A stretch of 56,946 nucleotides of DNA, taken from the sequence record SRR20825019_2015. One strand, given 5' to 3'. A model generated the notes under the pieces. That model was not told where the DNA came from. It worked only from the letters and a program-made list of their open reading frames with translations, and did no database searches. Positions within the stretch are counted from its first letter, which is position 1; each line of letters begins with the position of its first letter. The position numbers and the translations under genes were made by a program. This document shows positions 4,926 to 29,217 of this stretch, in pieces.

Positions 4926-4932
4926 TTCTTAA

Positions 4933-9263: not shown

Positions 9264-9274
9264 TCCCTTGCCTT

Positions 9275-12111: not shown

Positions 12112-12130
12112 TCACAAAAAATTAGAAATT

Positions 12131-12763: not shown

Positions 12764-12768
12764 GAGCT

Positions 12769-13764
12769 ATGGAATGGGATAATCTTCATGAACTCCTGCG
12801 TTCGCTGTACGATGAAATGATCCTTATGTCTGCGGATATGGCAGCAGTGGCCAAAGGTATTGCCGGATTGGGAGCTCTGTTCTATGTTGCCCTAAAGGTA
12901 TGGCAGGCACTCAGCCGGGCAGAACCGATTGATGTGTTCCCGCTCTTACGGCCTTTTGCCATCGGGCTTTGCATTATATTTTTCCCAACCATCGTATTGG
13001 GAACCGTCAATGCGGTATTAAGGCCGGTGGTACAGGGCACCCACGGGATGCTCGAAAATGAGGTACTTGACCTGAACCAGTTACAGGCACAGAAAGACCA
13101 GTTGGAAAGGGAAGCCATGCTCCGCAATCCCGAAACAGCCTACTTGGTAAGCGATGAGAAATTTGACAAGAAACTGGACGAATTGGGATGGTCACCCTCT
13201 GATCTGGCCACAATGTCAGCGATGTACCTTGGCAGGCAAAGCTATAAGATAGAGAAAGCGATAAAGGAATGGTTCCGCAATCTGTTGGAAATCCTTTTTC
13301 AGGCTGCGGCACTCGTCATAGACACGATACGGACCTTCTTTCTTATTGTACTGTCCATCTTGGGGCCGATAGCATTTGCGATAAGTGTTTGGGATGGTTT
13401 CCAATCCACGCTTACGCAATGGCTCACCCGGTACATCAGTGTGTACCTGTGGCTGCCCATTGCCGATATGTTCAGTTCCATGCTCGCCAAGATACAATCC
13501 CTGATTATCGAAAGGGATATTGAGATGCTCTCAGACCCGACTTTCATTCCCGATACTTCCAATACCGTGTACATCATTTTTATGATTATCGGCATCGTAG
13601 GCTACTTCACCATCCCCACTGTAGCAGGCTGGGTTATCCAGGCCGGAGGTGGAGGAAACTTCATGCGCAATGTGAACCAGACAGCCTCTAAAACAGGGAA
13701 TATCGCAGGAGCCGGAACGGGAGCTACTGTGGGCAACATCGGAGGAAAATTAATGAACAAATAA
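12769..13764 (+). CDS. traJ: TraJ (VirB6-like membrane protein)
   Basis: GIAGLGALFYVA…AEPIDVFPLLRPF…WLTRYISVYLWLP…PTVAGWVIQAGG. Confidence 0.93.
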   Translation: MEWDNLHELLRSLYDEMILMSADMAAVAKGIAGLGALFYVALKVWQALSRAEPIDVFPLLRPFAIGLCIIFFPTIVLGTVNAVLRPVVQGTHGMLENEVLDLNQLQAQKDQLEREAMLRNPETAYLVSDEKFDKKLDELGWSPSDLATMSAMYLGRQSYKIEKAIKEWFRNLLEILFQAAALVIDTIRTFFLIVLSILGPIAFAISVWDGFQSTLTQWLTRYISVYLWLPIADMFSSMLAKIQSLIIERDIEMLSDPTFIPDTSNTVYIIFMIIGIVGYFTIPTVAGWVIQAGGGGNFMRNVNQTASKTGNIAGAGTGATVGNIGGKLMNK

Positions 13765-13776
13765 ACATTGGTAGAA

Positions 13777-14400
13777 ATGGAATTTAAGACTTTAAGAAAT
13801 ATTGAAAACAGTTTCAGGCAAATACGGCTGTATGCCATCGTATTTGCCGTACTCTGCACCAGCGTGGTAGGATATGCCGTATGGCAATCCTACCACTTTG
13901 CAGAATTGCAACGGCAAAAGATTTATGTTTTGGACAATGGCAAGTCGTTGATGTTGGCACTTTCACAGGATGCGAGCATTAACCGTCCTGTGGAAGCCCG
14001 TGAACACGTAAGGCGTTTCCATGAACTGTTCTTTACACTGGCCCCGGACAAGCGTGCCATCGAGAGCAATATGAAACGGGCATTCAACCTTGCCGACAAA
14101 AGTGTATTCGACTATTACAAAGACCTTTCGGAAAAGGGGTACTACAACCGCATAATATCAGGCAATGTACAGCAACGCATCGAAGTGGACAGTGTGGTCT
14201 GCAACTTCAACACCTATCCCTATGCCGTCAGGACGTATGCCAAGCAATATATCATCCGTTCGAGCAATTTGACAAGACGGAGCCTGGTCACATCCTGCTA
14301 TCTCGTGAATTCCGTCCGCTCGGACAACAATCCACAGGGCTTTAATATCGAGAAGTTCAGCGTACTGGAAAACAAAGACGTGGAAGTTATAGAACGCTAA
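13777..14400 (+). CDS. traK: TraK (VirB8-like)
   Basis: MEFKTLRNIENSFRQIR…EAREHVRRFHELFFTLAPD…RSDNNPQGF. Confidence 0.94.
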   Translation: MEFKTLRNIENSFRQIRLYAIVFAVLCTSVVGYAVWQSYHFAELQRQKIYVLDNGKSLMLALSQDASINRPVEAREHVRRFHELFFTLAPDKRAIESNMKRAFNLADKSVFDYYKDLSEKGYYNRIISGNVQQRIEVDSVVCNFNTYPYAVRTYAKQYIIRSSNLTRRSLVTSCYLVNSVRSDNNPQGFNIEKFSVLENKDVEVIER

Positions 14401-14409
14401 ATCAATATC

Positions 14410-14838
14410 ATGGAAGCACTATCAGATTTGAGCACATTTACACAAACCCTAACCGCAAAGGGGTATAACGGCTATTTCCATACCCAGGGTGCGTATGCAG
14501 GAAAGCTGAAGGAAAGCATCAGTGAGTACCTCGAAAACTGCCGAAACGGTACGGAGGGGGAACCAAAGCCGGAGTTGTTACTCACGGGCTATCTGCAATG
14601 GGCAGGTGAAGACAAACCCCGTGTGGAATGTACCCTTTGGGTAAAACACCTGAACGGAAAATTCTTCCTGGACAAAATGGAAATAGCAAGGAAAGACCGC
14701 TTCGGGCAATTGCTGAAACAATCCAAGCTGACCGACCTTTCCGTGATGACTATACCCAGTGCAATGGAGGCAATCGCTATGGTAAAAGATACCCCAAAAC
14801 AAAAAGCTGTTCAAAGCAGCAGGCGTTTCAAGCTGTAA
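14410..14838 (+). CDS. Hypothetical protein inside tra operon
   Basis: 142-aa ORF, 9 nt after traK, same strand; no motif recognised. Confidence 0.75.
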   Translation: MEALSDLSTFTQTLTAKGYNGYFHTQGAYAGKLKESISEYLENCRNGTEGEPKPELLLTGYLQWAGEDKPRVECTLWVKHLNGKFFLDKMEIARKDRFGQLLKQSKLTDLSVMTIPSAMEAIAMVKDTPKQKAVQSSRRFKL

Positions 14839-14859
14839 TAACGGATAAAACATTGAAGC

Positions 14860-15132
14860 ATGAAAAATCCAAGAAAAAGGATAAGCGATTGGTTGGACAA
14901 GCTGGACGGGCAGTGGCAGGCGATGCCTGTTAAAAGGCAGCACCGCTATGCACTGCTGTTCTTTGCGGGCTATGCGCTATTGTCCATTATCGTGATAACC
15001 GAAGTCTGTTATGAAGTGGGCAAACCCAATAATGGAATGACGATAGAACATATCGAAAACCCGGTTATCCAACAAAGAAAGTCCCCGGTAATAACGCAGG
15101 ACAGCATTTCAGAAATCATTAAACACAAATAA
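14860..15132 (+). CDS. traL: TraL-like small membrane protein
   Basis: Single TM segment, IEHI motif, immediately upstream of traM. Confidence 0.7.
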   Translation: MKNPRKRISDWLDKLDGQWQAMPVKRQHRYALLFFAGYALLSIIVITEVCYEVGKPNNGMTIEHIENPVIQQRKSPVITQDSISEIIKHK

Positions 15133-15133
15133 T

Positions 15134-16450
15134 ATGAAAGATAACAAAAACAAGAGAGCGAGTTTTCTGGTCGAAAGTGACGGGCAGAAAAGCGGAACGG
15201 AGGCACCGAATGACGGTGCGCAGCATAAGGCTGAAAGGCTGAAAAAGCCTATCATTTTTGTCCTTATGGGCGTGGTGTTTCTCGGCTGTATGTATTTAAT
15301 CTTTAAACCATCATCCGAAGAAAACGAAGTCGAAGATTTTGGTCTGAACGATGTCGTACCACAGGCAACCGACGAAGGGCTTCAGTCCGACAAGCAAAAG
15401 GCATACGAGCAAGAGATGATGAAGCAGAAAATGGAAGAAAAACGCAGCTCCCTGATGTCCTTGTCGGACTACTGGAACACGGAAAGTACTACTGATGAAG
15501 AAACAGGACAAACGGAAGAGGACAACGGGGATGAATACAAAGGCGGTTCACGTAAAGGGGGCAATCCGGCATTGAACAGTTACCGCAATGCGCAAAGTAC
15601 CCTGACTTCTTTTTACGATAACAGCGATTACGAAACCCAGGAGCTCCGCAAACAAGTCGAGGAACTCAAAGAGCAACTGGCTGAAAAGGATGTACCGCCA
15701 AATACGACCGTTGAGGATCAGTTGGCATTGATGGAGAAATCCTATGAAATGGCATCCCGTTACATGCCATCCAGCCAAACGCAGACGCATGAAGCGGACA
15801 CGCAGGTTTCGGCAAAGGGCAACCAAAGGGAATACTTTGTGGCATTCACGCCTGCAAGGAAAAATGCCGTGTCTTCCCTCTATCGGGAGCCATCAGACAG
15901 TGCTTTCCTTGCAAACTGGAGCGAAACCCGCAACAGGGGATTTTATACGGCCGGTGTTTCGCAGCAGGTAATACAGCCCAAAAACAGCATCCGGGCGGTG
16001 GTGCAGGAAACACAGATCGTAACGGGAGAAAGCGGGGTACGATTGCGCTTACTGGAAACGGCACAAACACCCAACCATACCATTCCGGCAGGAACGGTAG
16101 TAATGGCAAATGCCAAGTTTGCAAGCGGCAGGCTGCAACTAAGGGTAACATCCATCGAACTGGAAGGAAATATTATCCCTGTGGATATATCGGTGTACGA
16201 TCTGGACGGACAGCAAGGACTGTACGTACCATACTCGCCTGAAATGAACGCCCTTACTGAAATGGCCGGCAATATGAGCCAGACTTCCGGAACAAGCGTA
16301 ATGCTCACGCAATCAGCAGGGCAGCAGGTTGCCGCAGACCTTAGCCGTGGCGTGGTACAGGGTATTTCGGGCTACTTCTCCAAGAAAGTGAGGACACCGA
16401 AAGTTACCGTCAAAGCTGGTCACAGGCTGCTCCTTGTTTCAAAAAATTAA
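15134..16450 (+). CDS. traM: TraM (VirB10-like)
   Basis: N-terminal TM, coiled coil, VRLRLLE…YDLDGQQGLYVP…SKKVRTPKVTVKAG. Confidence 0.94.
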   Translation: MKDNKNKRASFLVESDGQKSGTEAPNDGAQHKAERLKKPIIFVLMGVVFLGCMYLIFKPSSEENEVEDFGLNDVVPQATDEGLQSDKQKAYEQEMMKQKMEEKRSSLMSLSDYWNTESTTDEETGQTEEDNGDEYKGGSRKGGNPALNSYRNAQSTLTSFYDNSDYETQELRKQVEELKEQLAEKDVPPNTTVEDQLALMEKSYEMASRYMPSSQTQTHEADTQVSAKGNQREYFVAFTPARKNAVSSLYREPSDSAFLANWSETRNRGFYTAGVSQQVIQPKNSIRAVVQETQIVTGESGVRLRLLETAQTPNHTIPAGTVVMANAKFASGRLQLRVTSIELEGNIIPVDISVYDLDGQQGLYVPYSPEMNALTEMAGNMSQTSGTSVMLTQSAGQQVAADLSRGVVQGISGYFSKKVRTPKVTVKAGHRLLLVSKN

Positions 16451-16479
16451 ATGTTCAATACTGAAAAACAGAATCAAAA

Positions 16480-17382
16480 ATGAAAACAATATTTAAAATC
16501 CTATTGGCAATAGTTGGCTTAATGGTCCTCCATGCCAACACCTATGCACAACAACTTGCATCCCATACCACCAAACTGGATATGGGCAAAATAGCGCCTT
16601 ATGAAATGCAGGTAACGTATAACAAAACCTCACACCTGATATTTCCGTCCGCCATCCGTTATGTGGATCTGGGCAGTGAGTACCTGATTGCGGGCAAGGC
16701 AGAAGACGCAGAAAACGTACTGCGTATCAAAGCTACCGTGAAGGACTTTGAGGGAGAAACCAATTTTTCGGTGATTACCGATGACGGCAGGTTTTACAAC
16801 TTCAATGTGTATTACAGTGCCCATCCCAATTCGATGAACTATGACCTGCTCAATATGCAAAAGGCTTTGGACAGGGAAAGTGGTAACGATGTGCTATTTG
16901 AGGAACTGGGCAGCAGTTCACCGTCATTGGCAGGATTGCTTATGGAAACCATCTACAAAAGGAATAAAAGGTATATCAAACATATCGGGGCAAAAAGCTA
17001 CGGGATCCAATTCCTGCTCAAAGGGATCTATGTCCACAATGGCAAATTCTATTTCCATACCGAAGTAAGGAATAAGGGCAATGTCCCTTTCCAAATCGAC
17101 TTTGTGAATTTCAAGGTCGTGGACAAAAAAGTGGCCAAGCGCACCGTGGTACAGGAAAAACCGATGACCCTGTTGCGCATGTACAAACCGCTTACCGGAA
17201 TTGAGGGGAATACCACCGACCAGAACGTGTTCCTGCTCGACCAGTTTACCATGACTGATGACAAGATACTCGTTATCGAAATCTTTGAGAAAAATGGTGG
17301 CAGACAGCAAATATTGCAGGTGGAAAACTCCGATCTGGTTCATGCCAGACCCATCAAGGAGATGCACCTAAAGATTAATTAA
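16480..17382 (+). CDS. traN: TraN (VirB9-like)
   Basis: VTYNKTSHLIFPSAIRYVDLGS…ETNFSVIT…EKNGGRQQ. Confidence 0.94.
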   Translation: MKTIFKILLAIVGLMVLHANTYAQQLASHTTKLDMGKIAPYEMQVTYNKTSHLIFPSAIRYVDLGSEYLIAGKAEDAENVLRIKATVKDFEGETNFSVITDDGRFYNFNVYYSAHPNSMNYDLLNMQKALDRESGNDVLFEELGSSSPSLAGLLMETIYKRNKRYIKHIGAKSYGIQFLLKGIYVHNGKFYFHTEVRNKGNVPFQIDFVNFKVVDKKVAKRTVVQEKPMTLLRMYKPLTGIEGNTTDQNVFLLDQFTMTDDKILVIEIFEKNGGRQQILQVENSDLVHARPIKEMHLKIN

Positions 17383-17399
17383 CCCAAAAGGAGACGACA

Positions 17400-17957
17400 A
17401 TGATAAAATACATTTTTGCCGTAGTACTTGCCATGTTAAGTATGACGGCACTACAGGCGCAACGTATGCTTCCGGGACAAAAAGGTCTGGAAATAAATGC
17501 GGGTATGTTGTCCAAAGAAGTCAGCGATAATTATTACCTGAACCTGACCCTTACCGTAAATGGGAAGAACGGTAATTACTGGATATGGGCAGCGGAATAT
17601 ACCCATCAATTTACTGATTACAGGGAGTTGGAAATACCATTGGAAGCCTATACGGGTGAAGTGGGATACAGTCTTCAGTTGTTGGGCGATGCGCGAAAGA
17701 CCATTACTTTAAATGCAGGGGTTACCGCCCTTGCCGGTTACGAAACCATTAACCGTAATGAGGCAATCCTGTATGATGGGGCAATCATCCTGAACGAAGA
17801 TAATTTCATTTACGGCATAGGTGGTCAGCTTTCATTGGAGACCTACCTGTCCGACCGGGTTGTGCTGCTTTTGAAAGGACGTACCAAAGTGTTTTGGGGT
17901 ACGGATTTAAAACAGTTCCGTCCATCGGCAGGGATCGGATTAAGGTTTAACTTTTAA
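17400..17957 (+). CDS. traO: TraO outer-membrane protein
   Basis: AQRMLPGQKGLE…ALAGYETIN…LETYLSDR, C-terminal Phe. Confidence 0.9.
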   Translation: MIKYIFAVVLAMLSMTALQAQRMLPGQKGLEINAGMLSKEVSDNYYLNLTLTVNGKNGNYWIWAAEYTHQFTDYRELEIPLEAYTGEVGYSLQLLGDARKTITLNAGVTALAGYETINRNEAILYDGAIILNEDNFIYGIGGQLSLETYLSDRVVLLLKGRTKVFWGTDLKQFRPSAGIGLRFNF

Positions 17958-17968
17958 AAAGAACAACA

Positions 17969-18403
17969 ATGAAACGATTATTGAATAAAAGCAGATTGAT
18001 ATGGTTGGTTATCCTGGCCTTTACAAGTGCGGTGGTATTATTCTCTTGTGATAAGGAAGAGTTGGAAATACAACAGAACTACCCGTTTGAGGTCAGGGTG
18101 ATGCCCGTTCCCGGAGAGGTAGCCAGTGGTCAGACCGTTGAAATAAGGATGACGATAGAGCGAGACGGGAATTTCAACGATACGGAATACTTTATCCGTT
18201 ATTTCCAGTTTGACGGTCAAGGCACGTTACAGTATTTCAGTGAACCACCATACCTGCCCAATGACCTTTATCAGCTACCGGCTACACAGTTCAGGCTGTA
18301 CTACACTTCACAGTCCACCGTAACGCAGTCGTTTGACGTATGGGTTTCGGACAACTTCGGAAATGAACGGCAAGTGAGTTTTCAGTTTAACAATGGCGAA
18401 TGA
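17969..18403 (+). CDS. traQ: TraQ lipoprotein (DUF3872)
   Basis: Lipobox LFSC, QQNYPFEVRVMPVP, YFIRYFQFDGQG, FRLYYTS. Confidence 0.9.
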   Translation: MKRLLNKSRLIWLVILAFTSAVVLFSCDKEELEIQQNYPFEVRVMPVPGEVASGQTVEIRMTIERDGNFNDTEYFIRYFQFDGQGTLQYFSEPPYLPNDLYQLPATQFRLYYTSQSTVTQSFDVWVSDNFGNERQVSFQFNNGE

Positions 18404-18523: not shown

Positions 18524-18796
18524 ATGATGTCATCGTTGGTCATAGGTATCATATTTTTGGTTTTGGGCTTGGGCCTGCGTTATTGGATTAACCGCCGGAA
18601 GTTTTACAGGCGGAGCCCCACCGGTGCCGAGGGCTTTTCAAGCTATGAAAAATCGGTTGCCACCAGATTTTTTGAACGGACCGGTAAATGGGTAGCCTAC
18701 GCCTTGATTATTTTCGGGCTTTTGTCGTTGTGGGTCTATTCCAAGGAGAAAAAAGAAGTGGCATCCCAAAATACGGAGGTGCAAAATCCTCAATAA
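18524..18796 (+). CDS. Small two-TM membrane protein
   Basis: Two hydrophobic segments flanking RYWINRRKFYRRSPTGAEGFSSYE. Confidence 0.75.
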   Translation: MMSSLVIGIIFLVLGLGLRYWINRRKFYRRSPTGAEGFSSYEKSVATRFFERTGKWVAYALIIFGLLSLWVYSKEKKEVASQNTEVQNPQ

Positions 18797-18951
18797 GCAA
18801 CAATATAATTATATGTAGCGGCGCGGGTCTTTACGACCGTTCCTTTTGTGCCAAACCATGCCTCCCAAGGCCAAACACTCTCTTAATCTGCATATCCCCC
18901 AAACCCTTTCCTAATTTCCATTTCACCCAAGAAAAAAAGAGGAAAGGAATT

Positions 18952-19242
18952 ATGGAAGTGATAGCAATACCCAAGTCGGTTCTCAAAGAACTGTCCACAG
19001 AACTGGATGAACTTTTACGGCTTACTACCGATGTAAGCGAAACCTATACAGCCATCTTCAACAAAGAAAGATGGCTCGACAATCAGGAAGTATGCCTGAT
19101 GCTCGGTATCAGCAAACGCACATTGCAGTCTTATAAAAATAAAGGGCTTTTGCCTTATTCCAAACTAAACCGAAAAAACTATTACAAATTTTCGGACGTA
19201 CAGCGTTTACTTGCTTCGGATACCTCTCCCCAAAATAAATGA
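18952..19242 (+). CDS. Excisionase-like helix-turn-helix protein (HTH_17)
   Basis: WLDNQEVCLMLGISKRTLQSYKNKGLLPYSK; start set at ATG 18952. Confidence 0.88.
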   Translation: MEVIAIPKSVLKELSTELDELLRLTTDVSETYTAIFNKERWLDNQEVCLMLGISKRTLQSYKNKGLLPYSKLNRKNYYKFSDVQRLLASDTSPQNK

Positions 19243-19553
19243 GCATGGAATTTTTTGATAACGATGCCGAAGAAATAGCTTACTACAAGAAGAAGCTCGA
19301 TGAACTCCGTACCCGGATAGAATTGATACTGGAGCATTTCCGTCCCGTAATGAACGGTGATATTTACCTGTCAGGCGAAGACGTGTGCCGTTTGCTACAT
19401 ATCAGCAAACGCACCTTGCAACAATATCGGGACGATAACATCCTGCCCTATGTGCAGATTGGGGGCAAAATCATATTCCGGCAATCGGACATACTGCATG
19501 TATTGGAAGATAATTATGTAGCTAGGTCACAAGAACAAAGGACAAATGAGTGA
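19239..19553 (+). CDS. Second excisionase-like HTH_17 protein
   Basis: YLSGEDVCRLLHISKRTLQQYRDDNILPYVQIGGKI; ATGA overlap with the previous gene. Confidence 0.88.
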   Translation: MSMEFFDNDAEEIAYYKKKLDELRTRIELILEHFRPVMNGDIYLSGEDVCRLLHISKRTLQQYRDDNILPYVQIGGKIIFRQSDILHVLEDNYVARSQEQRTNE

Positions 19554-20260: not shown

Positions 20261-20546
20261 CAGTTTAATCTCAACAGCATAAAATATCTGTTCTAATCAA
20301 GCGACGTTCTTTTGCTTCTTTTCTTTGGTCGCAATGTGGAAAGAAAAGAAGTACCTACCATAGCAAAAATGGGATAACGAATATCCCATGCAAAAAATCC
20401 CGCAACCTGTTTGGTGAAATGTAAGGAAAGGTAATTGCTGACGGGTACATTTTGGCAAAGTGGTTGCACCCATTTAATGCAAAAAGACTGCCCCGACCAT
20501 CGGGAGGGAGTGTCTTTTTGCCGCCCGCTCCAATAGCGGGGTCGGC

Positions 20547-21356
20547 TCAGGCAACTTTTAGGGGATGGGTGGTAAAATCTTTCAGGTTGTGGAAAAATCC
20601 CCTGTACGGTGTCAATCCGTTGCGGAACAATCCCCAAAGTAAAGAGCAACCCATTTGTGTCAATGAGGAGTTGATAAATAAGTCCTGTTTTTCCAAGGCT
20701 TCAACCAGACTACAACTTGGAGTACCGTCCTGCTCTTCGGATTGCTTCAGCAGTTCGCCAAATTCTTCGGTAACGAATGGCAGGCTTGCCACCGTTTCGT
20801 ACTTTTCGGATTGGGGTTGCTGTATTTCCCCAATAGTAGATAACAATACTTGCCCTGTGTACTGGCTGTTGCCAAAGTCCAACCAATATTTGGGGTTATC
20901 CCTGTAATTCCTGCGGTCACTTACTTCTTTCAGTATCTCGGCAACGCCAAACCTTGCCTGTACATTATCCACGCAAGTAATGGTAAGGGTCGCCCTGGCT
21001 TCTTCGGGTACTTGTCCGAAATTATCCTTTTCAAACTTTTGGGTTTCGGCTTTCCAGTTAGTCCCCGAAAAACGGTTGGCTCGGTTTATCAGTGCCACGG
21101 ATTTGTACAATCCTGTTTCACATTCCGCAAAACGCTGTCTGCCCAAATTAGCACTGGTAATCCTATCATCATCCCAAAGACGGACTTGCAATCCTGCGTG
21201 TCCCAATTCGATTAAACTATGGTTCATTTCCATTAAGGCAGTCAACACCTTTGAGCCTGTGCCACCCGCTCCGATAAGGTTTACCGAAATCGGGTTGGTA
21301 GGGCTTATGAGATAGTTGTCCGTAAGATGGACTGCTGTTTTTTCTGTATTCATCAC
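20547..21356 (-). CDS. PRTRC system ThiF/E1-like protein
   Basis: LIGAGGTGS, DDDRITSANLGRQ, TCVDN, WLDFGN, PSCS (candidate catalytic Cys). Confidence 0.92.
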   Translation of the reverse strand: MMNTEKTAVHLTDNYLISPTNPISVNLIGAGGTGSKVLTALMEMNHSLIELGHAGLQVRLWDDDRITSANLGRQRFAECETGLYKSVALINRANRFSGTNWKAETQKFEKDNFGQVPEEARATLTITCVDNVQARFGVAEILKEVSDRRNYRDNPKYWLDFGNSQYTGQVLLSTIGEIQQPQSEKYETVASLPFVTEEFGELLKQSEEQDGTPSCSLVEALEKQDLFINSSLTQMGCSLLWGLFRNGLTPYRGFFHNLKDFTTHPLKVA

Positions 21357-22075
21357 AATAGATTTTTAAGGGTTTTGTTGTTCTTTTTCAATACCTCTTT
21401 GGGAAAAGGTTTATCTGTACCGACCAGTTCTTTCCATACATTTACACAATTCCCTTTTATGGGGCTGTGGCTTCCCAATAAATGGCTGAAATAGCTGTTA
21501 AAAAAGTAGTCTTCCCATGCGGTTGTAAATTCCTCGACCGAAGCCGAATTTTTGATGTCAATATTTACAGTCCCCATACATACGTTGCCGTTCTCATATA
21601 CATTGAAAAATGGGGCATAATGCAAGGGTGTGTTTTCGGTGGGTCGTCTGTCGCTTTTCAACGCAAATACGTAAAGGGTGCTTTTGCTTGCCAACCAAAG
21701 CATTGGGGGTATTTGTGCCTTTCCGTTGGGGATGCCCAGACCGTTCACAAAATACAGTTGCTTTTGCTGTGCTTTGGTGTACCACAGTACCGTTCCTTTT
21801 TTGCTCGGATTGATATGCAGGATGTTGGTCGGTAAAATCCCCTTCGGCTTTAAAAAGGCTTTGTTCCTTTCTTCACTGGTCTGTAAGGACTTTGCCAATA
21901 CGTTGGCTTCTTTTACCGTTAATGGGTGCGCATTGATAGGGTTGCCGTCTTTGTCCATATCGAAATGCTCCACGTACATATCGGTTTCCGCTGCTTTGGT
22001 CTGATAGAATACCAATGCGGATTTTGGATGGTACAATTTGCCGAAATTCTCGGTTATGTCGTTAATATTGTTCAT
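21353..22075 (-). CDS. PRTRC system protein B (prokaryotic E2-like)
   Basis: LHYAPFFNVYENGNVCMG, WEDYFFNSYFSH. Confidence 0.9.
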   Translation of the reverse strand: MNNINDITENFGKLYHPKSALVFYQTKAAETDMYVEHFDMDKDGNPINAHPLTVKEANVLAKSLQTSEERNKAFLKPKGILPTNILHINPSKKGTVLWYTKAQQKQLYFVNGLGIPNGKAQIPPMLWLASKSTLYVFALKSDRRPTENTPLHYAPFFNVYENGNVCMGTVNIDIKNSASVEEFTTAWEDYFFNSYFSHLLGSHSPIKGNCVNVWKELVGTDKPFPKEVLKKNNKTLKNLL

Positions 22076-23241
22076 TGTTCTTCTGTTTTATATTCATATA
22101 ATAGACTGCCCAAATCCTCTAATAGAGCAAACAAACGGTTCTCAAAATCAAGATTGTTTGCAGTTATTTCGTTTCCGTCAAAGCGTTTGAAAATGGTCGG
22201 TTCTTCGATTTCCCCGTACTCGTTAAACTCGTTGTTGATACAGTCCGCAAGACTTTCATACAACCAACCTTTAGTGTCCGACACGAATGAAATGTACTTT
22301 TCCATTCCGATAATTTCATGGTCATAATCATCAGTATCGGGGGCTTGTTCAGGTGCATTTCGGAACACGCTTGCAGTCGGATATTCATTGTAAAGAGCAA
22401 AGGCGTTGCAAGCCATTTTATGGCATGCCATATCAAAGTCATCCCGAATTTTAAAACCGTTCAAGCGTTGTTCAAATAGCTGTAAATTGATACGGTTGTA
22501 CAGTTTCTGTTCAATCCTGTCACCAATGGTTTCGGCTTTCCTCAATTCACCTTTATAAAATTCGGTTTCGTCCGTATGGTCATCGTATTCCACCCATTCG
22601 GTAAACATTTCGTATTGCCAATATAAATAGGTGCTTTCCTGCCTGTAATACGGAATGTCCGCAATATGGTACAAGTAACTGCAAACCGATAGGAGTAGCT
22701 GTGCAGTCCGTTTCCGCTTTTTGTTGTGCAACATGCTGAATAGTGGCACAACGGGAATATAGAAAAGGGTCGTGCCTGTGTCGTATCGCTGTTCACTTAT
22801 CAAAAATGTTTTCCTGCTGTCCTGTGCCAAACGTAAGTTGTCCCAATTTACTACGGAGCGTTTTAGCTTGGTTTCCAAATCCCAAGTTGTCAGTACTATA
22901 TTGTAGGGGAAACCATATTCTTTGGTCTGCATAGGTTCAATACGGTAATGTTCGGCAAGACTGGAAAGGGACTTATAAAAATCCCTCTCCGTTTTTGCAG
23001 CTTCCTTACAAGCCTGTACAGATTGTGCCGTTTTCAGTTTGGGCAGAAACGTACATTTCAAAAAACCATTGGTAGCATGGCTATCGGTACGGCTTTCCGC
23101 TTGTCTTTCTGTATTTCGTTTGCGTCTTTTGGCTTTTGCATCCAATTGGCAAACTCGCCCAACTGTCGGTGCAGTTGCTGTTGCCGTTGCTGTTCGGGAA
23201 AGCTGATAATTCCCGATATGATGTTGCGTTGCATAATTCAT
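22072..23241 (-). CDS. PRTRC protein F-like alpha-helical protein
   Basis: 389-aa ORF between proteins C and B, ATGA-coupled to B; assignment mostly positional. Confidence 0.65.
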   Translation of the reverse strand: MNYATQHHIGNYQLSRTATATATAPTVGRVCQLDAKAKRRKRNTERQAESRTDSHATNGFLKCTFLPKLKTAQSVQACKEAAKTERDFYKSLSSLAEHYRIEPMQTKEYGFPYNIVLTTWDLETKLKRSVVNWDNLRLAQDSRKTFLISEQRYDTGTTLFYIPVVPLFSMLHNKKRKRTAQLLLSVCSYLYHIADIPYYRQESTYLYWQYEMFTEWVEYDDHTDETEFYKGELRKAETIGDRIEQKLYNRINLQLFEQRLNGFKIRDDFDMACHKMACNAFALYNEYPTASVFRNAPEQAPDTDDYDHEIIGMEKYISFVSDTKGWLYESLADCINNEFNEYGEIEEPTIFKRFDGNEITANNLDFENRLFALLEDLGSLLYEYKTEEQ

Positions 23242-23257
23242 TCTTTTGATTTTTAGT

Positions 23258-23476
23258 TTAACCTTTCGTACCCATTACGCTTTCAAATCTGTACTCGACC
23301 GCATCGTCCTTGATTTGTGGTGCAGATACTTTTGCAGTCGTCAAAATCGGGTACATATTGGCGTAATAATTCATCACGGCTTCCACGCTCCAACGTGCTT
23401 CGGGGTCGGTCAATCTGATGTCCTGTCCTTTATCTTTGAGTATAAAAACTCGCTCTAATTGCGTTGCTAATAACAT
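23258..23476 (-). CDS. PRTRC system protein C (prokaryotic ubiquitin-like)
   Basis: 72 aa: LERVF…LTDP…SVEAVMNYYANMYPILTTA…GTKG-COOH. Confidence 0.92.
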   Translation of the reverse strand: MLLATQLERVFILKDKGQDIRLTDPEARWSVEAVMNYYANMYPILTTAKVSAPQIKDDAVEYRFESVMGTKG

Positions 23477-23493
23477 AGTTCCTTAATTTAGGG

Positions 23494-24030
23494 TTATACA
23501 TTCTGTTCCTGTTCTGCCCCGAAAAGGTCGGGAGCAAATTTTTCGGACAATTCCTTTTTGCGTTTGCGTATCTCGTCCGCTTTTTCGGGAAACTCCGCTA
23601 TATCGGGTACTTTTATCCACGCTTCACGGAATTTGCCCTCTTTTTCAAGTTCGTCCACCTTTGCCATACTATCCTTGTATTTCTTGTCTTTGGCTTCTTT
23701 TTCCTTTTTGGCTTTCTCGGCTTTCTCTTTCTCCATAGCCGATTGTTTTTTGGCTTCCTCGATTTGTTTTAGGAATTTTTCCATATCAACCATGACCCCC
23801 GAAACGGTTTGGATAGGTGCGGTTATCTGCTCAAAAAATCCCTCGTCAAACTCCTGCGGTGTGGCGTTGAAAGTCAATGGGGGAATAAGGTTTTTGGCAT
23901 TATCACCACACGCTTCGTTATGGAGCATGACCGATACGATCAGGTTGTTTTCCGCTCCCTTTGAAATATTCAGTTGTAGATTCCCTGTAAACTCCAACTG
24001 TGCTATTTGATTAAAGAAATTTGTTTTCAT
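23494..24030 (-). CDS. PRTRC system protein E
   Basis: MKTNFF…PPLTFNATPQEFDEGFF, charged coiled coil, C-terminal PDLF. Confidence 0.85.
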   Translation of the reverse strand: MKTNFFNQIAQLEFTGNLQLNISKGAENNLIVSVMLHNEACGDNAKNLIPPLTFNATPQEFDEGFFEQITAPIQTVSGVMVDMEKFLKQIEEAKKQSAMEKEKAEKAKKEKEAKDKKYKDSMAKVDELEKEGKFREAWIKVPDIAEFPEKADEIRKRKKELSEKFAPDLFGAEQEQNV

Positions 24031-24051
24031 TGCTTTAAAATTTTAATGTGT

Positions 24052-24384
24052 TTACTTATTGATTTCTGCTATTTGGTCTATCCTGCCATAGATTATGCTC
24101 CGTAGGCTCGTTTTATCGGGTGCGTTATACTCGTGCCAACTGCCGTACTGTTTCACGACATAGGTTTTCAGTACATCTTCAAACCCGAACCGATAGCCCA
24201 TTAGCGGTACTGCTTTTTTGAAATAGGCGTTTCGGTTTACCGCTTCTGCAAGCCAATTTTTCTCGGTTCGATGCAATTTCCCGCCCTTGTTCAGTTTTTC
24301 CCTTAACTGATAAGCCTTTGAGGTTTTCAGCCTTTCCAATTCGGGAACATCGTGGCGGACAAACTTTGTGGCTATTGCTTCCAT
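24052..24384 (-). CDS. Hypothetical basic protein
   Basis: 110-aa co-oriented ORF with an A-rich initiation region. Confidence 0.75.
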   Translation of the reverse strand: MEAIATKFVRHDVPELERLKTSKAYQLREKLNKGGKLHRTEKNWLAEAVNRNAYFKKAVPLMGYRFGFEDVLKTYVVKQYGSWHEYNAPDKTSLRSIIYGRIDQIAEINK

Positions 24385-24411
24385 TGGGTCTGTTTTAATG
24401 TTTTACACTTA

Positions 24412-24609
24412 CTAATTTTCAGAGGTAAAAACCCCATTTACATAATAGCCGTATGACTGTTCCCAAAGGCGTATTAAGCCGTCCGTATCTACATAGAAAT
24501 ACTTCGTCCGATTGCATTAAATAATATGTATGCTTTGGTCTTTGTACTCCCTGTCAAGGCTCTGTGCTTTAGCCAAACTTTTGGCTTCCTCTATTGATTT
24601 TGCTTTCAT
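24412..24609 (-). pseudogene. Small 65-codon gene with internal TAA (not in ORF track)
   Basis: MKAKSIEEAKSLAKAQSLDREYKDQSIHII*CNRTKYFYVDTDGLIRLWEQSYGYYVNGVFTSEN*; stop at 24517-24519; fills the gap between DUF932 and the next gene. Confidence 0.7.
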
Positions 24610-24623
24610 AATCCCTGTTTTTA

Positions 24624-24655
24624 ACAGGCTACCACCGATGAAGGCGGTAGCCTGT
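24624..24655 (-). other. Intra-operon hairpin
   Basis: ACAGGCTACC / GGTAGCCTGT 10-bp stem just after the DUF932 stop; no U-tract on the minus strand. Confidence 0.6.
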
Positions 24656-24661
24656 GGTTGT

Positions 24662-25735
24662 TTAATTAAGGTTTAGGATTTCCGCACCGTCCGTTGCAAA
24701 GGCATTGCAGTATTCAAATGCCTTTTGAGATTTGAGTTGGGCAGTACCGCCCATTACGATACTCTGCAACTTGGCTTCGTCATCCCTGTAATTGCGTACA
24801 TTCTGAAAGTAGCCCGTAACAGCGTTGTATGCCCCGAACAATGTACCTTTGGTGGTGTCCATTTGTTGGGTATCGCTTACCATTGCGTAAGCAAAGGCAT
24901 CATCAATGGTGTTTTTGAACACCGTGGATAGTTCATCCTCTGCACCGTTCTTGATGTGTTCCAAAGATTCCTTGTTCGGGCAAAGAGCCAATTGGATGAG
25001 CTTTCTGACCTCTCGGTCTGTTACCCTCACTTTTGCCCACTCGTTGAAAATGCCTTCCAATTGAGTTGTCAAGGTATTGGCTAATCCCATAATCTTGTGG
25101 GCATTCTCGATACGCTGTTTTGCGCCTGAAGTGTGTTTGATACGCACTTCGTTGGTCATATTCCGCAATGAGGCGTTAAGGGTGTTTTGGCAAACGATAC
25201 GGATAGGTGTAAACGCCGCGGTAATACTTCCGCTACCATCGTGGCTTGTGGTCAGGAAAATGTACTTTTCCGTTACATCATCGCCATTGCCCACACGGAT
25301 ATAACCGGGCAGTTTAGCCGTAATGAAAATACGTTCCCCATTGCCCAATGCCCCTGCGGTTTCGTACAGGATGCCCTCGCCACCGCCTACAATACTGTCA
25401 AAGAAATTGAACGCTTCACGGTTCTGTACGATATGGTAATCCTTACCGACCACGCCCAATACGGCATTGTTATCGGTACGGATGTTGGCAAAATAGTGGG
25501 GTACTTCCAGTTCGTTGCTCCCTATCTCGATACCCTGTTCAGTTTCGATAATCCCCGAACCTTTCGTGAATAGTGGGGATTTGACTACTTCATAATCCAA
25601 TCCTGCGTATTTGATAGCTTCCTCACTTGTCGGGTATTCCTCTACGATTTGCCCCAGACCATGCCATGCTTTTTGCTGTACTGAAAAGAAACTGTACTTT
25701 CCTGTTCTCTCGTTGAAATTGATGTTATGTGCCAT
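24662..25735 (-). CDS. DUF932 domain protein (phage/plasmid-like)
   Basis: MAHN…AWHGLG…VQNREAF…ETAGALGNG…TSHDGSGS…TPIRIVCQNTL…IKHT. Confidence 0.92.
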   Translation of the reverse strand: MAHNINFNERTGKYSFFSVQQKAWHGLGQIVEEYPTSEEAIKYAGLDYEVVKSPLFTKGSGIIETEQGIEIGSNELEVPHYFANIRTDNNAVLGVVGKDYHIVQNREAFNFFDSIVGGGEGILYETAGALGNGERIFITAKLPGYIRVGNGDDVTEKYIFLTTSHDGSGSITAAFTPIRIVCQNTLNASLRNMTNEVRIKHTSGAKQRIENAHKIMGLANTLTTQLEGIFNEWAKVRVTDREVRKLIQLALCPNKESLEHIKNGAEDELSTVFKNTIDDAFAYAMVSDTQQMDTTKGTLFGAYNAVTGYFQNVRNYRDDEAKLQSIVMGGTAQLKSQKAFEYCNAFATDGAEILNLN

Positions 25736-25747
25736 GATTTTGAAATT

Positions 25748-26170
25748 TTAGAATGTTTGAAAAAAGATTGAATGTTTGTTGTTAAAATGGAGGTCGTCCT
25801 CTGTTTCCTGTTTGGTGTTGTTGCTTTCAGATTGTGCAGTAGCCTGTAGGGTTTCTGCTTTCCTGCTACCTCCGTGCAATTTGATTTGTGAGGTATGGAA
25901 ATTCAGTCCTGCATGTGCTTTGCCGTCCATATCCGTCCACGCCCTTACGCTTACCCTGCCTGTGAGTTCTACCAAAGAGCCTTTGGTGAGTATCTTGGCT
26001 ACGTTCGGGGTTATCCAATAAGAGCAATCGAAAAAGGCGGTTTGCTCTACCCGTTCGCCCTGTTTGGTTTGATAGCTGTCGTTTACCGCTACCGAAAAGT
26101 TTACCACCTGTCTGTTGTCGTCAAGGGTTTTTACTTCCGCATCCCTTGTTAGTCTTCCTGTGATGTTCAT
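25748..26170 (-). CDS. ssb: Single-stranded DNA-binding protein (C-terminal tip apparently frameshifted)
   Basis: ITGRLTRDAEV…VNFSVAVN…LTKGSLVELTGR; ends EDDLHFNNKH… rather than DDLPF*. Confidence 0.93.
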   Translation of the reverse strand: MNITGRLTRDAEVKTLDDNRQVVNFSVAVNDSYQTKQGERVEQTAFFDCSYWITPNVAKILTKGSLVELTGRVSVRAWTDMDGKAHAGLNFHTSQIKLHGGSRKAETLQATAQSESNNTKQETEDDLHFNNKHSIFFQTF

Positions 26171-26292
26171 GATTTTTGAATTTTTAGAGATTGATTTTGA
26201 TTTGTTTTTTTGTTTGATTTATTCGGTAATGAGAGGAGGTGCTGTTTCGTTTCATTACCATTTCCAATGCTTGTAATCTTCATATCTGACAT
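26167..26292 (-). CDS. Possible 41-aa leader ORF coupled to ssb
   Basis: MSDMKITSIGNGNETKQHLLSLPNKSNKKTNQNQSLKIQKS*; TGA overlaps the ssb ATG (ATGA). Confidence 0.3.
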   Translation of the reverse strand: MSDMKITSIGNGNETKQHLLSLPNKSNKKTNQNQSLKIQKS

Positions 26293-26572
26293 TTTTTTTA
26301 TTCGTTTAAAGAGCCGGAGTATGCTATGTTTCGTTTCACGAGCATAAAAGGTCCGTGTATAGCAGCACCAAGGTTTTGGAGGGAAATACTACCCAACGGG
26401 TGGAGATTTTTTTCCAAACTTGTCCTGACCTTGGGGATGCGTTAAGGACACGGTAATACCTTTGCTCTTGAAATGGAACAATAAAGCATACTGGCTCTTT
26501 GGATAAAAAAGGTGTGGAAGCCGGGAAGATGGCATTGGGAAATGGTCCGGGATGAATTGAAATAACACTTCC
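26235..26572 (+). promoter_or_regulatory. Long imperfect hairpin; candidate Frpo/ssi-like ssDNA promoter
   Basis: At least ten nested complementary blocks centred on the loop at 26395-26397; TACCTTTG at 26457-26464 in the distal arm. Confidence 0.7.
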
Positions 26573-26774
26573 AATTCCAGAATTTTTTAAATCCTTTTTT
26601 AGTTGTGTGGCTGTGAAAGCCGCACCTACAGAGGTTTGAAAAATTGTTATGCAAGGGAAAGGCACAGGGCAACATTTTTCAATCTTCTGTCCGGGAAATA
26701 GCCATAAGCTCTTTTACAGCGGAGGGATCGGATCGGAAGGTAAATGTGCTTTGGCTATAGGAAGTATGGGGAAT

Positions 26775-26801
26775 AAAAAAGCAGGATCATAAAATCCTGC
26801 T
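26775..26801 (-). terminator. Integrase terminator
   Basis: Minus strand AGCAGGAT-loop-ATCCTGC-TTTTTT. Confidence 0.75.
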
Positions 26802-26830
26802 CTATAATTGTTGGAAAGGAATGAATCTGA

Positions 26831-28096
26831 TTAAACTGCAATTTTTTCTTCCATCGCACTAAAGGAAACTTCCATTGCCTTTAAATTTCTGGCAACAATA
26901 TCCATGTCCATACCAACTTTCTCATTGAGTATTTTGGCATAGATCTGAGTGGTGGTAATGTTCGTATGCCCCATCATTTTTTGTACACTTTCAAGTGAGG
27001 CACCAGCCGTAAGCACCATTGTAGCAAACGTATGGCGTGCCGTGTGGAAGGTTACCTTTTGCTCGGTAGTAATCTCTGCAATTGCCATAATCCTGGCGAT
27101 ATGATTGTTGCAGGTTGCATTGGATGGAACCGGAAAAACAAATTCGTTCCTTGTTGTACCGAAATACTTCTCAATGATTTTCTTGGGTATTTCCAATAAA
27201 CGGACGTTGGACGAAACATCGGTTTTCTTTCTCCGGCTGATAACCCACTGATGGCCGTCAAAGAAATTCTGAATATTGTTCCGCTTCAGTTTTTTGATGT
27301 CCGCATAGGACAAGCCCGTAAAACAACTGAAAACAAAGAGATCTCGGACAAGTTCGTGCCTTTTCTTCGGAAGTTGGCAAAGCATAATTTTCTCAACATC
27401 TTCTTTCAATAGGAAACCCCTGTCAGCCTCCTTCATGGTGATTTCGTAATCCTCGAAAGGATTATTGCGGATCATGCCTTTTTTGATGGCCAGCTCCACC
27501 ATACGTAAAACGGGCATGGTGTAAACCCAAACCGTGTTATGGGTACATTCCTTGTCCACACGCAGGTAGAAATCAAATTCACGGATAAAATCGGAAGTAA
27601 GCTCTTTGAAAGCCATGTCTTCCCTTAAATATCGTAGCTTGATAAACTCTGCAAGGTGGTTGTACACGATTTTATATTTATCATAGGTGCTTTGGGAACG
27701 CTCCTTTTTGGCTACCATTTTTGCAAAATCGTCATTGTGTGCCTGGAATACCTTTAGAATGGCATCTTCCATAATACCCACACCCAAAAAAGCAAGTTTC
27801 AATTTTTGCGGGGTGACAAAACCATCGTATTTGAGCAATTCCTCATAATACCTGTCGATCCGTAACCGGATATTGTCCAATTTTGTATTGGTGCTTAATG
27901 CCTTTTTGCTTTTCCCGGCGACCCTTCCATGTCTCAAATCCCAATTATTGGGGTCAATTTCCAGCTTTGTACTGAATGATGCAGCTTTTCCGTCAATAGT
28001 GATACGCCCCATAATGGCAACTGTGCCATTCTTCTTCGGCTCGTTTTTCTTTAAGTAGAAAAGGAGCTTAAACGTTGACCTTTTCGTCTGTTCCAT
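26831..28096 (-). CDS. int: Tyrosine integrase, IntDOT-type
   Basis: Arm-binding N-terminus (STFKLLFYLK…IMGRITIDG), FTGLSYAD, HTARHTF, MGHTNITTTQIY. Confidence 0.95.
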   Translation of the reverse strand: MEQTKRSTFKLLFYLKKNEPKKNGTVAIMGRITIDGKAASFSTKLEIDPNNWDLRHGRVAGKSKKALSTNTKLDNIRLRIDRYYEELLKYDGFVTPQKLKLAFLGVGIMEDAILKVFQAHNDDFAKMVAKKERSQSTYDKYKIVYNHLAEFIKLRYLREDMAFKELTSDFIREFDFYLRVDKECTHNTVWVYTMPVLRMVELAIKKGMIRNNPFEDYEITMKEADRGFLLKEDVEKIMLCQLPKKRHELVRDLFVFSCFTGLSYADIKKLKRNNIQNFFDGHQWVISRRKKTDVSSNVRLLEIPKKIIEKYFGTTRNEFVFPVPSNATCNNHIARIMAIAEITTEQKVTFHTARHTFATMVLTAGASLESVQKMMGHTNITTTQIYAKILNEKVGMDMDIVARNLKAMEVSFSAMEEKIAV

Positions 28097-28203
28097 AACT
28101 CAATCTTTTAATGTTTAAAATTAACTTTCAATGAGTTACAGGGAAAGATGAAAAGGAATGCAAAAGACTGAAATATAAGTAATTATGCTTCATGCGATAG
28201 ATT

Positions 28204-28350
28204 GGTTACCAGTAACGATTTAGTAACCCAACCTTGTCATTTTAAGCCTAAAACCTAAAGTACAGTGACCTCCAATTTCAGCCCCACATTTTATAAACCA
28301 CTGTATATGAACGGACTTCGCCGTTTTGCTTACCTTTGCTTTTTTCTAAT
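28204..28350. other. Probable ICE attachment end (arm-type repeats and core-like site)
   Basis: GGTTACCAGTAACGATTTAGTAACC repeats of GTAAC/GTTAC upstream of int; TTACCTTTGC at 28330-28339; gene content switches to host-like beyond it. Confidence 0.55.
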
Positions 28351-28536
28351 ATTTTTTATAAAAAAAATGAAGAACGCATCGCATCCCTATCGATTTTCAT
28401 ATTCAGACACATAATCATCCATATCTATTTATGAACCAATTGAATGCGAAAATTAAATTGTTGGATGTAGAAAGGTAGTCTAACTTAAGCTGTACAAATA
28501 CAAGTTGCGCTTACATAATATTTTCAATGAGGCAAT

Positions 28537-29217
28537 CTACGCTCTCTTTTGCTTTCTTTCAATGAGGGAAATAAAGTCATCTTTGATGCCATCACAAATG
28601 GCTACGGAGTTGTAAGTACAGTTTTTCATGTTTACAGGATCAAAACTGTACATTTTTATCTTAGAAGGCTTAAATTCCTTGCACTGCAAATGAGTAAACA
28701 TGCTAAGTGCTGCTTTGGAAGTGGAATAAGCGGTAAGACTATATCCAGAATAACAAAAACTTTCATCCTTCATCTTATTGATGTCACCCAACGAGCTTGT
28801 GATGTTAATGATTCTAGGTTCGTCACTCTGATTCAATAAAGGCTTAAGTGTTTGTATGGTTCGAATGATAGAGAAAAAATTAATCTCATAGACCTCCTTT
28901 ATATCCTCGATATTGATCTGATCTATCTTGTGGCCAAAACCATTGACAATTTCAGCATTGTTGATCAGCAGATCTAATTTGCCGTATGATTCCCTAATGG
29001 TATGTTCAAGCACACGTAAACTCTCTTCCGAACTAAAATCGATTTTCAAAAGCTGATATCCGTGTAAATCCTCCCCGTCCTTGGAGAGTAATTCAAAGCT
29101 TTTCCCGCATGCCGCAAGCACAACCTCATACCCATTCTCCAATAAAATCTTGGCAAACTTGTGGCCCAGTCCGTTACCTGCTTCCGTTACAACGGCAACA
29201 TATTTATCATTCTTCAT
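28537..29217 (-). CDS. Atypical short-chain dehydrogenase/reductase
   Basis: VAVVTEAGNGLG, LDLLINNAE, IINITS, YSTSK. Confidence 0.85.
   Translation of the reverse strand: MKNDKYVAVVTEAGNGLGHKFAKILLENGYEVVLAACGKSFELLSKDGEDLHGYQLLKIDFSSEESLRVLEHTIRESYGKLDLLINNAEIVNGFGHKIDQINIEDIKEVYEINFFSIIRTIQTLKPLLNQSDEPRIINITSSLGDINKMKDESFCYSGYSLTAYSTSKAALSMFTHLQCKEFKPSKIKMYSFDPVNMKNCTYNSVAICDGIKDDFISLIERKQKRA

Follow-up and report, generated by a model that had tools for sequence, protein, structure and literature searches.

What is the role of the long imperfect hairpin that precedes the ssb gene in a conjugative element of Bacteroidota? The question is raised by a stretch of 56,946 nucleotides from sequence record SRR20825019_2015 (the window; + is the strand as given), which is the right-hand part of a CTnDOT-like integrative conjugative element (ICE). 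An operon that starts with ssb and continues with DUF932 and PRTRC genes lies on the minus strand, with the hairpin of about 340 nt just upstream of it. Single-stranded DNA (ssDNA) promoters explain how plasmid protective genes are expressed before the second strand exists, and those that are proven are to our knowledge all enterobacterial (E. coli plasmids), with sigma-70 boxes. The original prediction, made from the letters of the window, held that only when the + strand is single-stranded does folding create a promoter that fires toward ssb. The computational tests made here all agree with this view: they concern a conserved box placed on one side only, a stem kept among relatives, a bias of the fold to one strand, the kinds of genes behind such hairpins, and the orientation of the relaxase. 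From these comparisons of sequences we consider it probable that the hairpin is an ssDNA promoter of the Frpo/ssi kind, built for the primary sigma factor of Bacteroidota, i.e. in the sigma-A code. Its parts are as follows.

26235..26572, + strand: the whole imperfect hairpin, proposed as the ssDNA promoter element (DNA fold, sliding scan and pairing in 45 sequences)
26257..26394, + strand: 5' or proximal arm, the putative template arm, whose complement would be the start of the transcript; the best-conserved part (mean column identity 0.937)
26398..26546, + strand: 3' or distal arm, the putative non-template arm, with the promoter boxes (mean identity 0.885)
26385..26408, + strand: AATACNACCC-N-GTGGAGATT and then a T run, a motif close to the loop and the family's most widely conserved signature

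Each strand of the region 26225-26585 was folded with DNA parameters and compared with 100 dinucleotide-preserving shuffles. The minimum free energy (MFE) of the + strand is -74.3 kcal/mol, to be compared with -36.1 +/- 3.8 for the shuffled sequences (z = -10.2), and that of the complement is -57.9 kcal/mol (z = -6.2). The + strand does fold better than the minus strand, as had been claimed, and the nested pairs listed in the original prediction are all found where it placed them and all belong to the MFE fold of the + strand. We also scanned positions 1-50040 in segments of 360 nt moved by steps of 90 nt (n = 553). The lowest energies are those of the two segments covering the hairpin (-70.1 and -68.5; mean -37.1, standard deviation 8.6), which lead the stability ranking despite a G+C content of 40%. 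The strand asymmetry is most negative in these same two segments (-14.5 and -12.8; mean +1.2, standard deviation 3.9). The hairpin is real, far beyond chance, and biased to the + strand. A repeat search of the window with a 10-nt seed missed it because its exact runs are interrupted. Rfam gave no match at gathering score over the whole window, the best E-value in 26000-26900 being 0.099, far below gathering.

The primary sigma factor of Bacteroidota is described as recognising TAnnTTTG, with a variable nn, together with a weaker TTTG/TTG near -33 (PMC9723704, PMC7366714); the sigma-A box of Flavobacterium is described as covering -12 to -5 (PMC9723704). Read with this code, the hairpin shows the following elements.

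26457..26464, + strand, distal arm: -7 box TACCTTTG (Bacteroidota sigma-A consensus TAnnTTTG), which faces ssb through the fold
26431..26433, + strand: candidate -33 element, seen in the sequence as TTG within GACCTTG, 23 nt upstream of the -7 box
26345..26347, + strand: bulge of three nucleotides, TAA, in the template arm, across from the point where TACCTT and TG meet, between the two blocks that pair with the box
26336..26338, minus strand: predicted transcription start, with the box at -12 to -5
26171..26337, minus strand: predicted leader, about 167 nt long, whose nucleotide sequence is conserved (identity 0.89-1.0 over 26221-26352)

The perfect -7 box announced for the distal arm, with TTG 23 nt upstream, is thus present. 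It is the sole exact TAnnTTTG on either strand in 26171-26830, and in duplex DNA it is directed away from ssb. On the minus strand, the lone one-mismatch candidate in 26100-26840 is CAAGTTTG at 26422, which reads CGGGTTTG in most relatives. Neither exact and one-mismatch scans nor the alignment described below revealed a conserved sense-strand box for the ssb operon. A scan of 25700-28600 for sigma-70 sites returned seven, none of them within 26171-26830, so that canonical -35/-10 boxes are lacking there.

The fold pairs the -7 box in two blocks, ACCTT/AAGGT (26458-26462 with 26348-26352) and TG/CA (26463-26464 with 26343-26344), which the bulge separates on the template arm. Because of this bulge the sense strand of duplex DNA reads GACCTTTT where a mirror box would be expected. 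This stretch of the minus strand, paired with the -7 box, is not a box, and the duplex minus strand is indeed non-consensus at the paired position, as the original prediction had it. The corresponding alignment columns (177-180) are unpaired between helices 9 and 10 in 45/45 aligned sequences. It is plausible that the bulge serves to remove the box from the duplex sense strand and so to shut off the promoter after second-strand synthesis; that it would in addition ease promoter opening is speculation. For the promoter of ColIb-P9, mismatches are reported to be of importance (Nasim et al. 2004). If the box covers -12 to -5, +1 would fall at 26469-26471 on the distal arm, which pairs with 26338-26336, hence the start predicted above.

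To see how far these features extend, we collected relatives by an SSB protein search, which gave 77 loci in named genomes. Their hosts belong to several orders (Flavobacterium, Pedobacter, Sphingobacterium, Chryseobacterium, Empedobacter, Myroides, Massilibacteroides, Niabella and others). DUF932 directly follows ssb in 76 of the 77 loci, and an integrase homologue lies upstream on the same strand in 60. Three loci with less than 600 nt upstream were dropped; the rest and the window yielded 56 distinct upstream regions of 700 nt. The strand equivalent to + in the window, i.e. the template of the operon, folds better in 56/56, which agrees with the claim that +, the template for the downstream minus-strand genes, is the better-folding strand. 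Over the last 480 nt (the non-coding region) 44 distinct relatives are 69-99% identical to the window, and seven others (L009, L040, L059, L070, L081, L083 and L084) only about 42%. The alignment used below has 45 rows.

In this alignment TACCTTTG is intact in 43/45 rows, the two others having TTCCTTTG (L020) and TACCTTCG (L067). The TT of the candidate -33 TTG is invariant and its G is found in 33/45. The proximal arm has a mean identity of 0.98 over 26289-26352, with 52 of 64 columns invariant, and the distal arm contains a conserved island around the box (26441-26480, 0.94-0.99), its identity being 0.77-0.87 elsewhere. The variation of the distal arm goes mostly into G-T wobbles, and a change from G-C to G-T keeps the + strand paired but not its complement. 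The G-T mismatches pointed out on the + strand of the window are a tendency of the relatives as well (540 G-T cells versus 139 A-C cells, a count biased by the use of a structure derived from the window).

The original prediction had also called for covariation across related ICEs, and this is observed. When the structure of the window is laid on the alignment, 85.7% of 6393 cells pair, versus 42-52% when the partners are slid by 1-3 columns. Both sides have changed in 22 pairs and in 124 cells. The corresponding numbers for shuffles are 16.5 +/- 1.7 and 49 +/- 5, and only 1/500 (pairs) and 0/500 (cells) are as high as those observed, figures that are not probabilities since the aligned sequences are kin. 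Of the 89 pairs that RNAalifold predicts, 11 show compensatory changes. Pairing is less well preserved at the base of the stem (26235-26256 with 26547-26572), where 57-82% of cells are paired in the window structure. Just past the base of the hairpin, conservation falls to 0.5 and then to zero. As a separate observation, a small hairpin GGCT-N5/6-AGCC at 26607-26620, just outside the base of the long one, is retained in many relatives although the neighbouring sequence is unconserved.

Two other features of the conserved leader and arm were noted. An 11-nt direct repeat, GTTTCGTTTCA, occurs on the + strand at 26244-26254 and 26328-26338; both copies are nearly invariant in the relatives, and the second begins at the predicted transcript start. 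This repeat may be a protein-binding or an RNA element. The leader also contains an open reading frame (ORF) that starts at 26292 on the minus strand in an A-rich context and ends, in the window, in an ATGA overlap with the start of ssb. It is found in all sequences of the main family, but its reading frame shifts between subgroups. A conserved small protein was thus rejected, only the nucleotides being conserved.

The element has more distant relatives. A distant blastn search of 72,556 plasmid records (E <= 1e-5) returned one match, on a 163-kb replicon of Prevotella nigrescens. There the element lies after traN, traO and traQ (+ strand) and upstream of a minus-strand operon (143-aa ORF, PcfK, PcfJ), with an integrase further upstream. 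The Prevotella hairpin folds at -68.8 versus -65.9 over 371 nt. Its distal arm keeps TACCTTTG while both flanks have changed in step, a 5-nt template bulge occupies the same place in the box, and the loop motif is present. A search with the intergenic region of the DNA of 61 relatives gave short matches only, one of which, in G052, contains two diverged tandem copies of the hairpin. A pattern for the proximal arm was found in just 3/401 genomes of the class, where it added four loci; the element is thus sporadic, as expected of mobile DNA. In these four loci and the Prevotella one, the same strand folds better (5/5) and the box is exact in 4/5, L098 having AACCTTTG. At L006 (540-1320) two adjacent tandem hairpins stand upstream of a DUF6943 gene, both with the loop motif and with the boxes TATCTTTG and TAACTTTG.

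Metagenome contigs gave a larger set. The loop motif, used as an exact pattern, matched at least 120 stretches, and 80 loci of these were taken further. From 77 instances with 190-nt flanks, those sharing more than half of their 12-mers were removed, leaving 52. These loci were chosen by a motif of the family and are mutually related, and the filter for near-duplicates is heuristic. In 34/52 the motif is followed on its own strand, at a distance of 30-110 nt, by an exact TAnnTTTG, mostly at +45 to +53 (+48 in the window), with CC as nn in 22 cases, AC in 5, TC in 5 and others in 3. In the controls an exact box is present in 1/52 for the proximal arm of the same strand, in 0/52 for the complementary strand over the distal arm and in 0/52 for the complementary strand over the proximal arm, i.e. 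the would-be duplex sense promoter (1/52 with slightly wider bounds). With one mismatch allowed the count is 50 of 52, versus 28, 17 and 26 in the controls. Once the sequences are aligned on the box, a TTG (usually CCTTG) ends 19-23 nt upstream in 24/34, and the flanks of the box carry almost no information. The strand bearing the motif folds better in 41/52, with a mean difference of -4.9 kcal/mol.

The genes found behind these hairpins are informative. Among the 52 metagenomic relatives, 40 have on the complementary strand an ATG-started ORF of at least 70 aa that begins 60-650 nt past the loop; some of the shortest distances fall within the arm, and the corresponding ORFs may be spurious. 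The Pfam matches of these 40 first ORFs (E <= 1e-4) are SSB (4), DUF6943 (4), ArdA (2), RadC (2), ArdC-N with a metallopeptidase (1), DUF932 (1), PcfK (1) and a phosphoribosyltransferase (1), and 24 have none. L112 (6069-6805) carries two hairpins 712 nt apart, one before RadC and the other before ArdA. Genes such as ssb, ardA, ardC, radC and DUF932 are of the kind found behind Frpo/ssi promoters, and an immediate expression of ssb and ardA upon entry is described for F and ColIb-P9 (PMC9849209). Hairpin pairs 712 nt apart were also seen on further metagenome contigs.

In the window the hairpin takes its place in the following context.

8961-18403, + strand: traE to traQ
18688-19553: two helix-turn-helix genes
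20293..25735, minus strand: rest of the operon, i.e. DUF932, 110-aa ORF, PRTRC_E, Prok_Ub, 389-aa ORF, Prok-E2_D, ThiF and 118-aa ORF (Pfam)
25748..26170, minus strand: ssb, first gene of the operon (Pfam SSB, 5e-18)
26778..26803, minus strand: terminator-like hairpin with T run that would end the integrase transcript upstream of the long hairpin (terminator scan)
26831..28096, minus strand: tyrosine integrase at the end of the element (Pfam Phage_integrase, Arm-DNA-bind_5, SAM_5)

Beyond the integrase lie ordinary chromosomal genes, and no tRNA was found in the hairpin region. As the integrase has its own terminator, the ssb operon needs a promoter of its own within 26171-26777.

The reading of the hairpin as a promoter depends on which strand is transferred. 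The DNA to the left of the window was examined through a near-identical stand-in, the element of the genome G062, which is 95-97% identical over most matched stretches and 91% over one. Its order, given in the orientation of the window, is: YWFCY-domain gene (-), cargo, relaxase (-), MobC_2 (-), a gap of about 750 bp, ParA-like traA (+), DUF3408 (+), a cargo slot, traE to traQ (+), PRTRC operon (-), ssb (-), hairpin and int (-). With relaxase and ssb on the same strand in this order, the origin of transfer (oriT) is expected just beyond the left end of the window, at some 28 kb from the hairpin. In 4/5 other genomes a relaxase is found on the strand of ssb at 30-33 kb downstream of it; in the fifth, one is found 5 kb downstream, again on the same strand. 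Relaxases next to oriT are described as typically lying in the lagging region, the last part to enter (PMC11541004). Applied to the position of the relaxase, this rule gives + as the transferred strand, its 5' end first, from oriT through tra toward the hairpin. We infer that the + strand is transferred, as sense strand for the tra genes and as template for ssb and the relaxase, an arrangement like that of F. The original prediction had proposed to locate oriT and its nick as confirmation that + is transferred: the orientation of the relaxase does imply +, but no motif oriented the nick. The available text of the papers on the oriT of CTnDOT and CTn341 does not state the direction of transfer (PMC3809561, PMC5729914).

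Taken together, these data suggest the following sequence of events. Nicking would take place at oriT, in the interval that separates the mob genes from traA just beyond the left end of the window, and the + strand would enter the recipient 5' end first. The tra operon would arrive as sense strand and stay silent, and the ssb-DUF932-PRTRC operon would arrive as template. Once inside and still single-stranded, 26235-26572 would fold into the hairpin of about 340 nt. Its distal arm would act as the non-template strand of a promoter, with GACCTTG (the -33 TTG), a spacer and TACCTTTG (-7), next to the T-rich stretch beside the loop, and its proximal arm as the template, with the 3-nt bulge within the -7 box. 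RNA polymerase with sigma-A would start near 26336-26338, read down the proximal arm and out of the base, and proceed into ssb. Synthesis of the complementary strand would then abolish the hairpin and, owing to the bulge, leave GACCTTTT on the duplex sense strand, so that the operon would be silenced. The same RNA may also prime complementary-strand synthesis, as for Frpo.

Several points weigh against this interpretation. The rule for the transferred strand was taken from other MOB families, and the mobA-traA gap of about 750 bp in G062 shows inverted repeats but no motif that orients the nick with confidence. Since about 28 kb, with the entire tra operon, separate it from oriT, the hairpin is not in the first DNA to enter, and the label "leading region" applies to it only loosely. 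In the window, -33 and -7 are 23 nt apart when counted along the non-template arm and 17 nt apart along the template arm, and 23 nt is at the edge of the 19-23 range of the relatives. The boxes are also intact on the + strand of duplex DNA, where they could act as an ordinary promoter directed away from ssb. No run recorded as RNA contains 22000-28200 of the window. The relatives are kin, so that the counts given above are not independent events. Among the metagenomic relatives 18/52 have no exact box and 11/52 fold no better on the strand of the motif, and the seven divergent ssb loci have a different hairpin with no exact box, two of the seven being without strand bias. Lastly, the proximal arm and the leader are more conserved than pairing alone requires, which suggests that another function, at the level of the mRNA or of protein binding, is layered there.

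The hairpin of these seven loci, of about 250 nt, forms a second and unrelated family before ssb-DUF932. Its members have the motifs CCAAAAGAAAAACCGGAAAAAAGAAAGCAG and GCTGCCTTTTTACCGG in common and no exact TAnnTTTG on either strand; TACCTTAG is found at a comparable place in L081 and L084.

Three other explanations of the long hairpin were considered. It might be a single-strand origin (sso/ssi) only, i.e. a site where the complementary strand is primed, through an RNA polymerase primer or a primase, and not a promoter of mRNA. The structural signature would be identical, a long orientation-specific hairpin on one strand, and ICEs do carry such origins: sso1 of ICEBs1 is described as orientation-specific and as aiding stable acquisition (PMC4595007), and Masai and Arai (1997, cited in PMC11541004 and PMC9849209) called Frpo itself promoter and primer site in their title. 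But a priming site has no need to stand before a gene, whereas this element in every case immediately precedes a gene of the complementary strand, and tandem copies each have their own (L112). Moreover, no other conserved promoter was found for the ssb operon. We therefore judge a role restricted to priming improbable; priming may well coexist with promoter activity, with which it is compatible.

The two remaining explanations place the function in duplex DNA or in RNA. The intact -33 and -7 boxes of the duplex + strand could form an ordinary promoter for a small or antisense RNA toward the integrase, or the hairpin could belong to a structured + RNA, the DNA fold being incidental in both cases. 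G-T wobbles would favour the + strand equally as G-U in RNA, and the loop resembles a terminator on +. However, the transcript from this promoter would contain the lower distal arm only and not the hairpin, and nothing drives a full-length + RNA, the nearest exact TAnnTTTG of the + strand upstream of the hairpin being at 24844. What lies in the + direction varies among relatives and is in every case a gene on the other strand; conservation is lost just past the hairpin base, and no Rfam family is matched at gathering score. An explanation by + RNA also leaves the best conservation of the proximal arm, the pairing and the strand bias without a reason, and appears very unlikely to us. Nor do we give more than a slim chance to a cis-regulatory structure or protein-binding region that would act on duplex DNA or on the sense mRNA, as a leader structure or through GTTTCGTTTCA operators. 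The conservation of leader and proximal arm beyond the needs of pairing would fit with it, as would the 11-nt direct repeat (26244-26254 and 26328-26338), the helix-turn-helix proteins encoded by the element at 18688-19553 and the minus strand, which also folds well above chance (z = -6.2). Yet the sense strand folds worse in 56/56, and where a single side has changed the result is G-T on +, against A-C on the sense strand (540 versus 139, with the bias of the window structure). The integrase transcript has a terminator and no conserved sense promoter was found upstream of the hairpin; a structure in the leader of the sense RNA is contradicted by this and by the strand bias. A -7 box that is one-sided and fixed in position across diverged relatives would also be left unexplained.

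An ssDNA promoter, the reading we retain, can be compared with the systems already described. Like Frpo of F (Frpo1/Frpo2) and ssi of ColIb-P9 as presented in PMC9849209 and PMC11541004, the hairpin is a long and imperfect one on a single strand that rebuilds the boxes of the host primary sigma factor and is directed at ssb or anti-restriction genes templated by the folding strand; several copies are possible, each before its own genes, and a switch-off by second-strand synthesis is expected. It differs from them by the absence of sequence similarity (no enterobacterial match in the blastn search of the 72,556 plasmids), by a Bacteroidota -7 TAnnTTTG and -33 TTG in place of sigma-70 -35/-10 boxes, by its host, an integrative element with a CTnDOT-type transfer system, by its distance of about 28 kb from oriT, behind the tra operon, and by the DUF932 gene and ubiquitin-like PRTRC cassette of its operon.

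Origins of the ssoA type are read by RNA polymerase. The hairpin shares with sso1 of ICEBs1 and with the sso of rolling-circle plasmids the nature of an orientation-specific single-strand hairpin of a mobile element, sso1 acting after transfer and before integration (PMC4595007). Unlike sso1, which lies just downstream of nicK and is not described in that source as heading an operon, the hairpins of the window family are 28-33 kb from the relaxase and always directly before a gene. As in ordinary sigma-A promoters of Bacteroidota, a -7 TAnnTTTG and a TTG near -33 are present, both conserved in the family; unlike in these, it takes an intramolecular fold to turn the boxes toward the gene, the duplex sense strand is devoid of them, and a bulge of 3-5 nt on the template strand lies within the -7 box.

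Our literature search found no published description of an ssDNA promoter in Bacteroidota or of a TAnnTTTG version, most subscription journals being outside its reach; the original prediction likewise knew of none. The survey reported in PMC11541004 relied on homology to five known Frpo/ssi sequences and on the sigma-70 consensus, and as described would have missed Bacteroidota. Its main text contains no mention of Bacteroid-, and its supplementary lists of candidates might include Bacteroidota elements.

Other observations concern the elements as mobile entities. The cargo slot between the traA-side genes and traE is filled in the window by a defence island (452-8776, minus strand), with a 1096-aa protein weakly matching the Cap4 nuclease, a Shedu SduA_C protein, and a UvrD-type helicase with an OLD-family ATPase carrying TOPRIM (Gabija-like pair). 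HTH/ImmA-like genes occupy this slot in the G062 element, together with a 5-hmdU DNA kinase, a MazG_C protein and a phosphopantetheinyl transferase. Some genomes contain multiple copies or versions of the element, two to four per genome and on different contigs: Pelobium manganitolerans (L049, L050, L051, L079), Sphingobacterium psychroaquaticum (L073, L018) and G062 (C12, C100). This suggests repeated acquisition or spread within the genome. The copy of Sphingobacterium multivorum (L039), in which DUF932 and the integrase match only in part and a relaxase-like frame of 297 aa is no further than 5 kb downstream of ssb, looks rearranged or decayed.

Beyond the window, the comparisons incline us, if only slightly, to think that these hairpins form a phylum-wide class of ssDNA promoters in conjugative elements of Bacteroidota, with a modular architecture fixed in position. 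This architecture would consist of the loop motif with its T run, the -33 TTG, the -7 TAnnTTTG and the template-strand bulge, which would both pre-open the -7 box and erase the duplex promoter. Such a class would drive ssb, ardA, ardC, radC, DUF932, DUF6943 and the PRTRC ubiquitin-like cassette as the element enters a new cell.

If this is true, the hairpin would offer genetic tools for Bacteroidota a natural switch that is on only while the DNA is single-stranded, and early genes could be recognised by a simple signature, the loop motif followed about 48 nt later by TAnnTTTG. DUF932, DUF6943, PcfK/PcfJ and the PRTRC cassette would be flagged as candidates for establishment or counter-defence functions. 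The logic of Frpo would have had a separate origin with a sigma factor that reads another promoter code, and it would work at a long distance from oriT, since the tra operon in between comes in as sense strand. The principle of the ssDNA promoter would thereby extend to the main vehicles of gene exchange of gut and environmental Bacteroidota.

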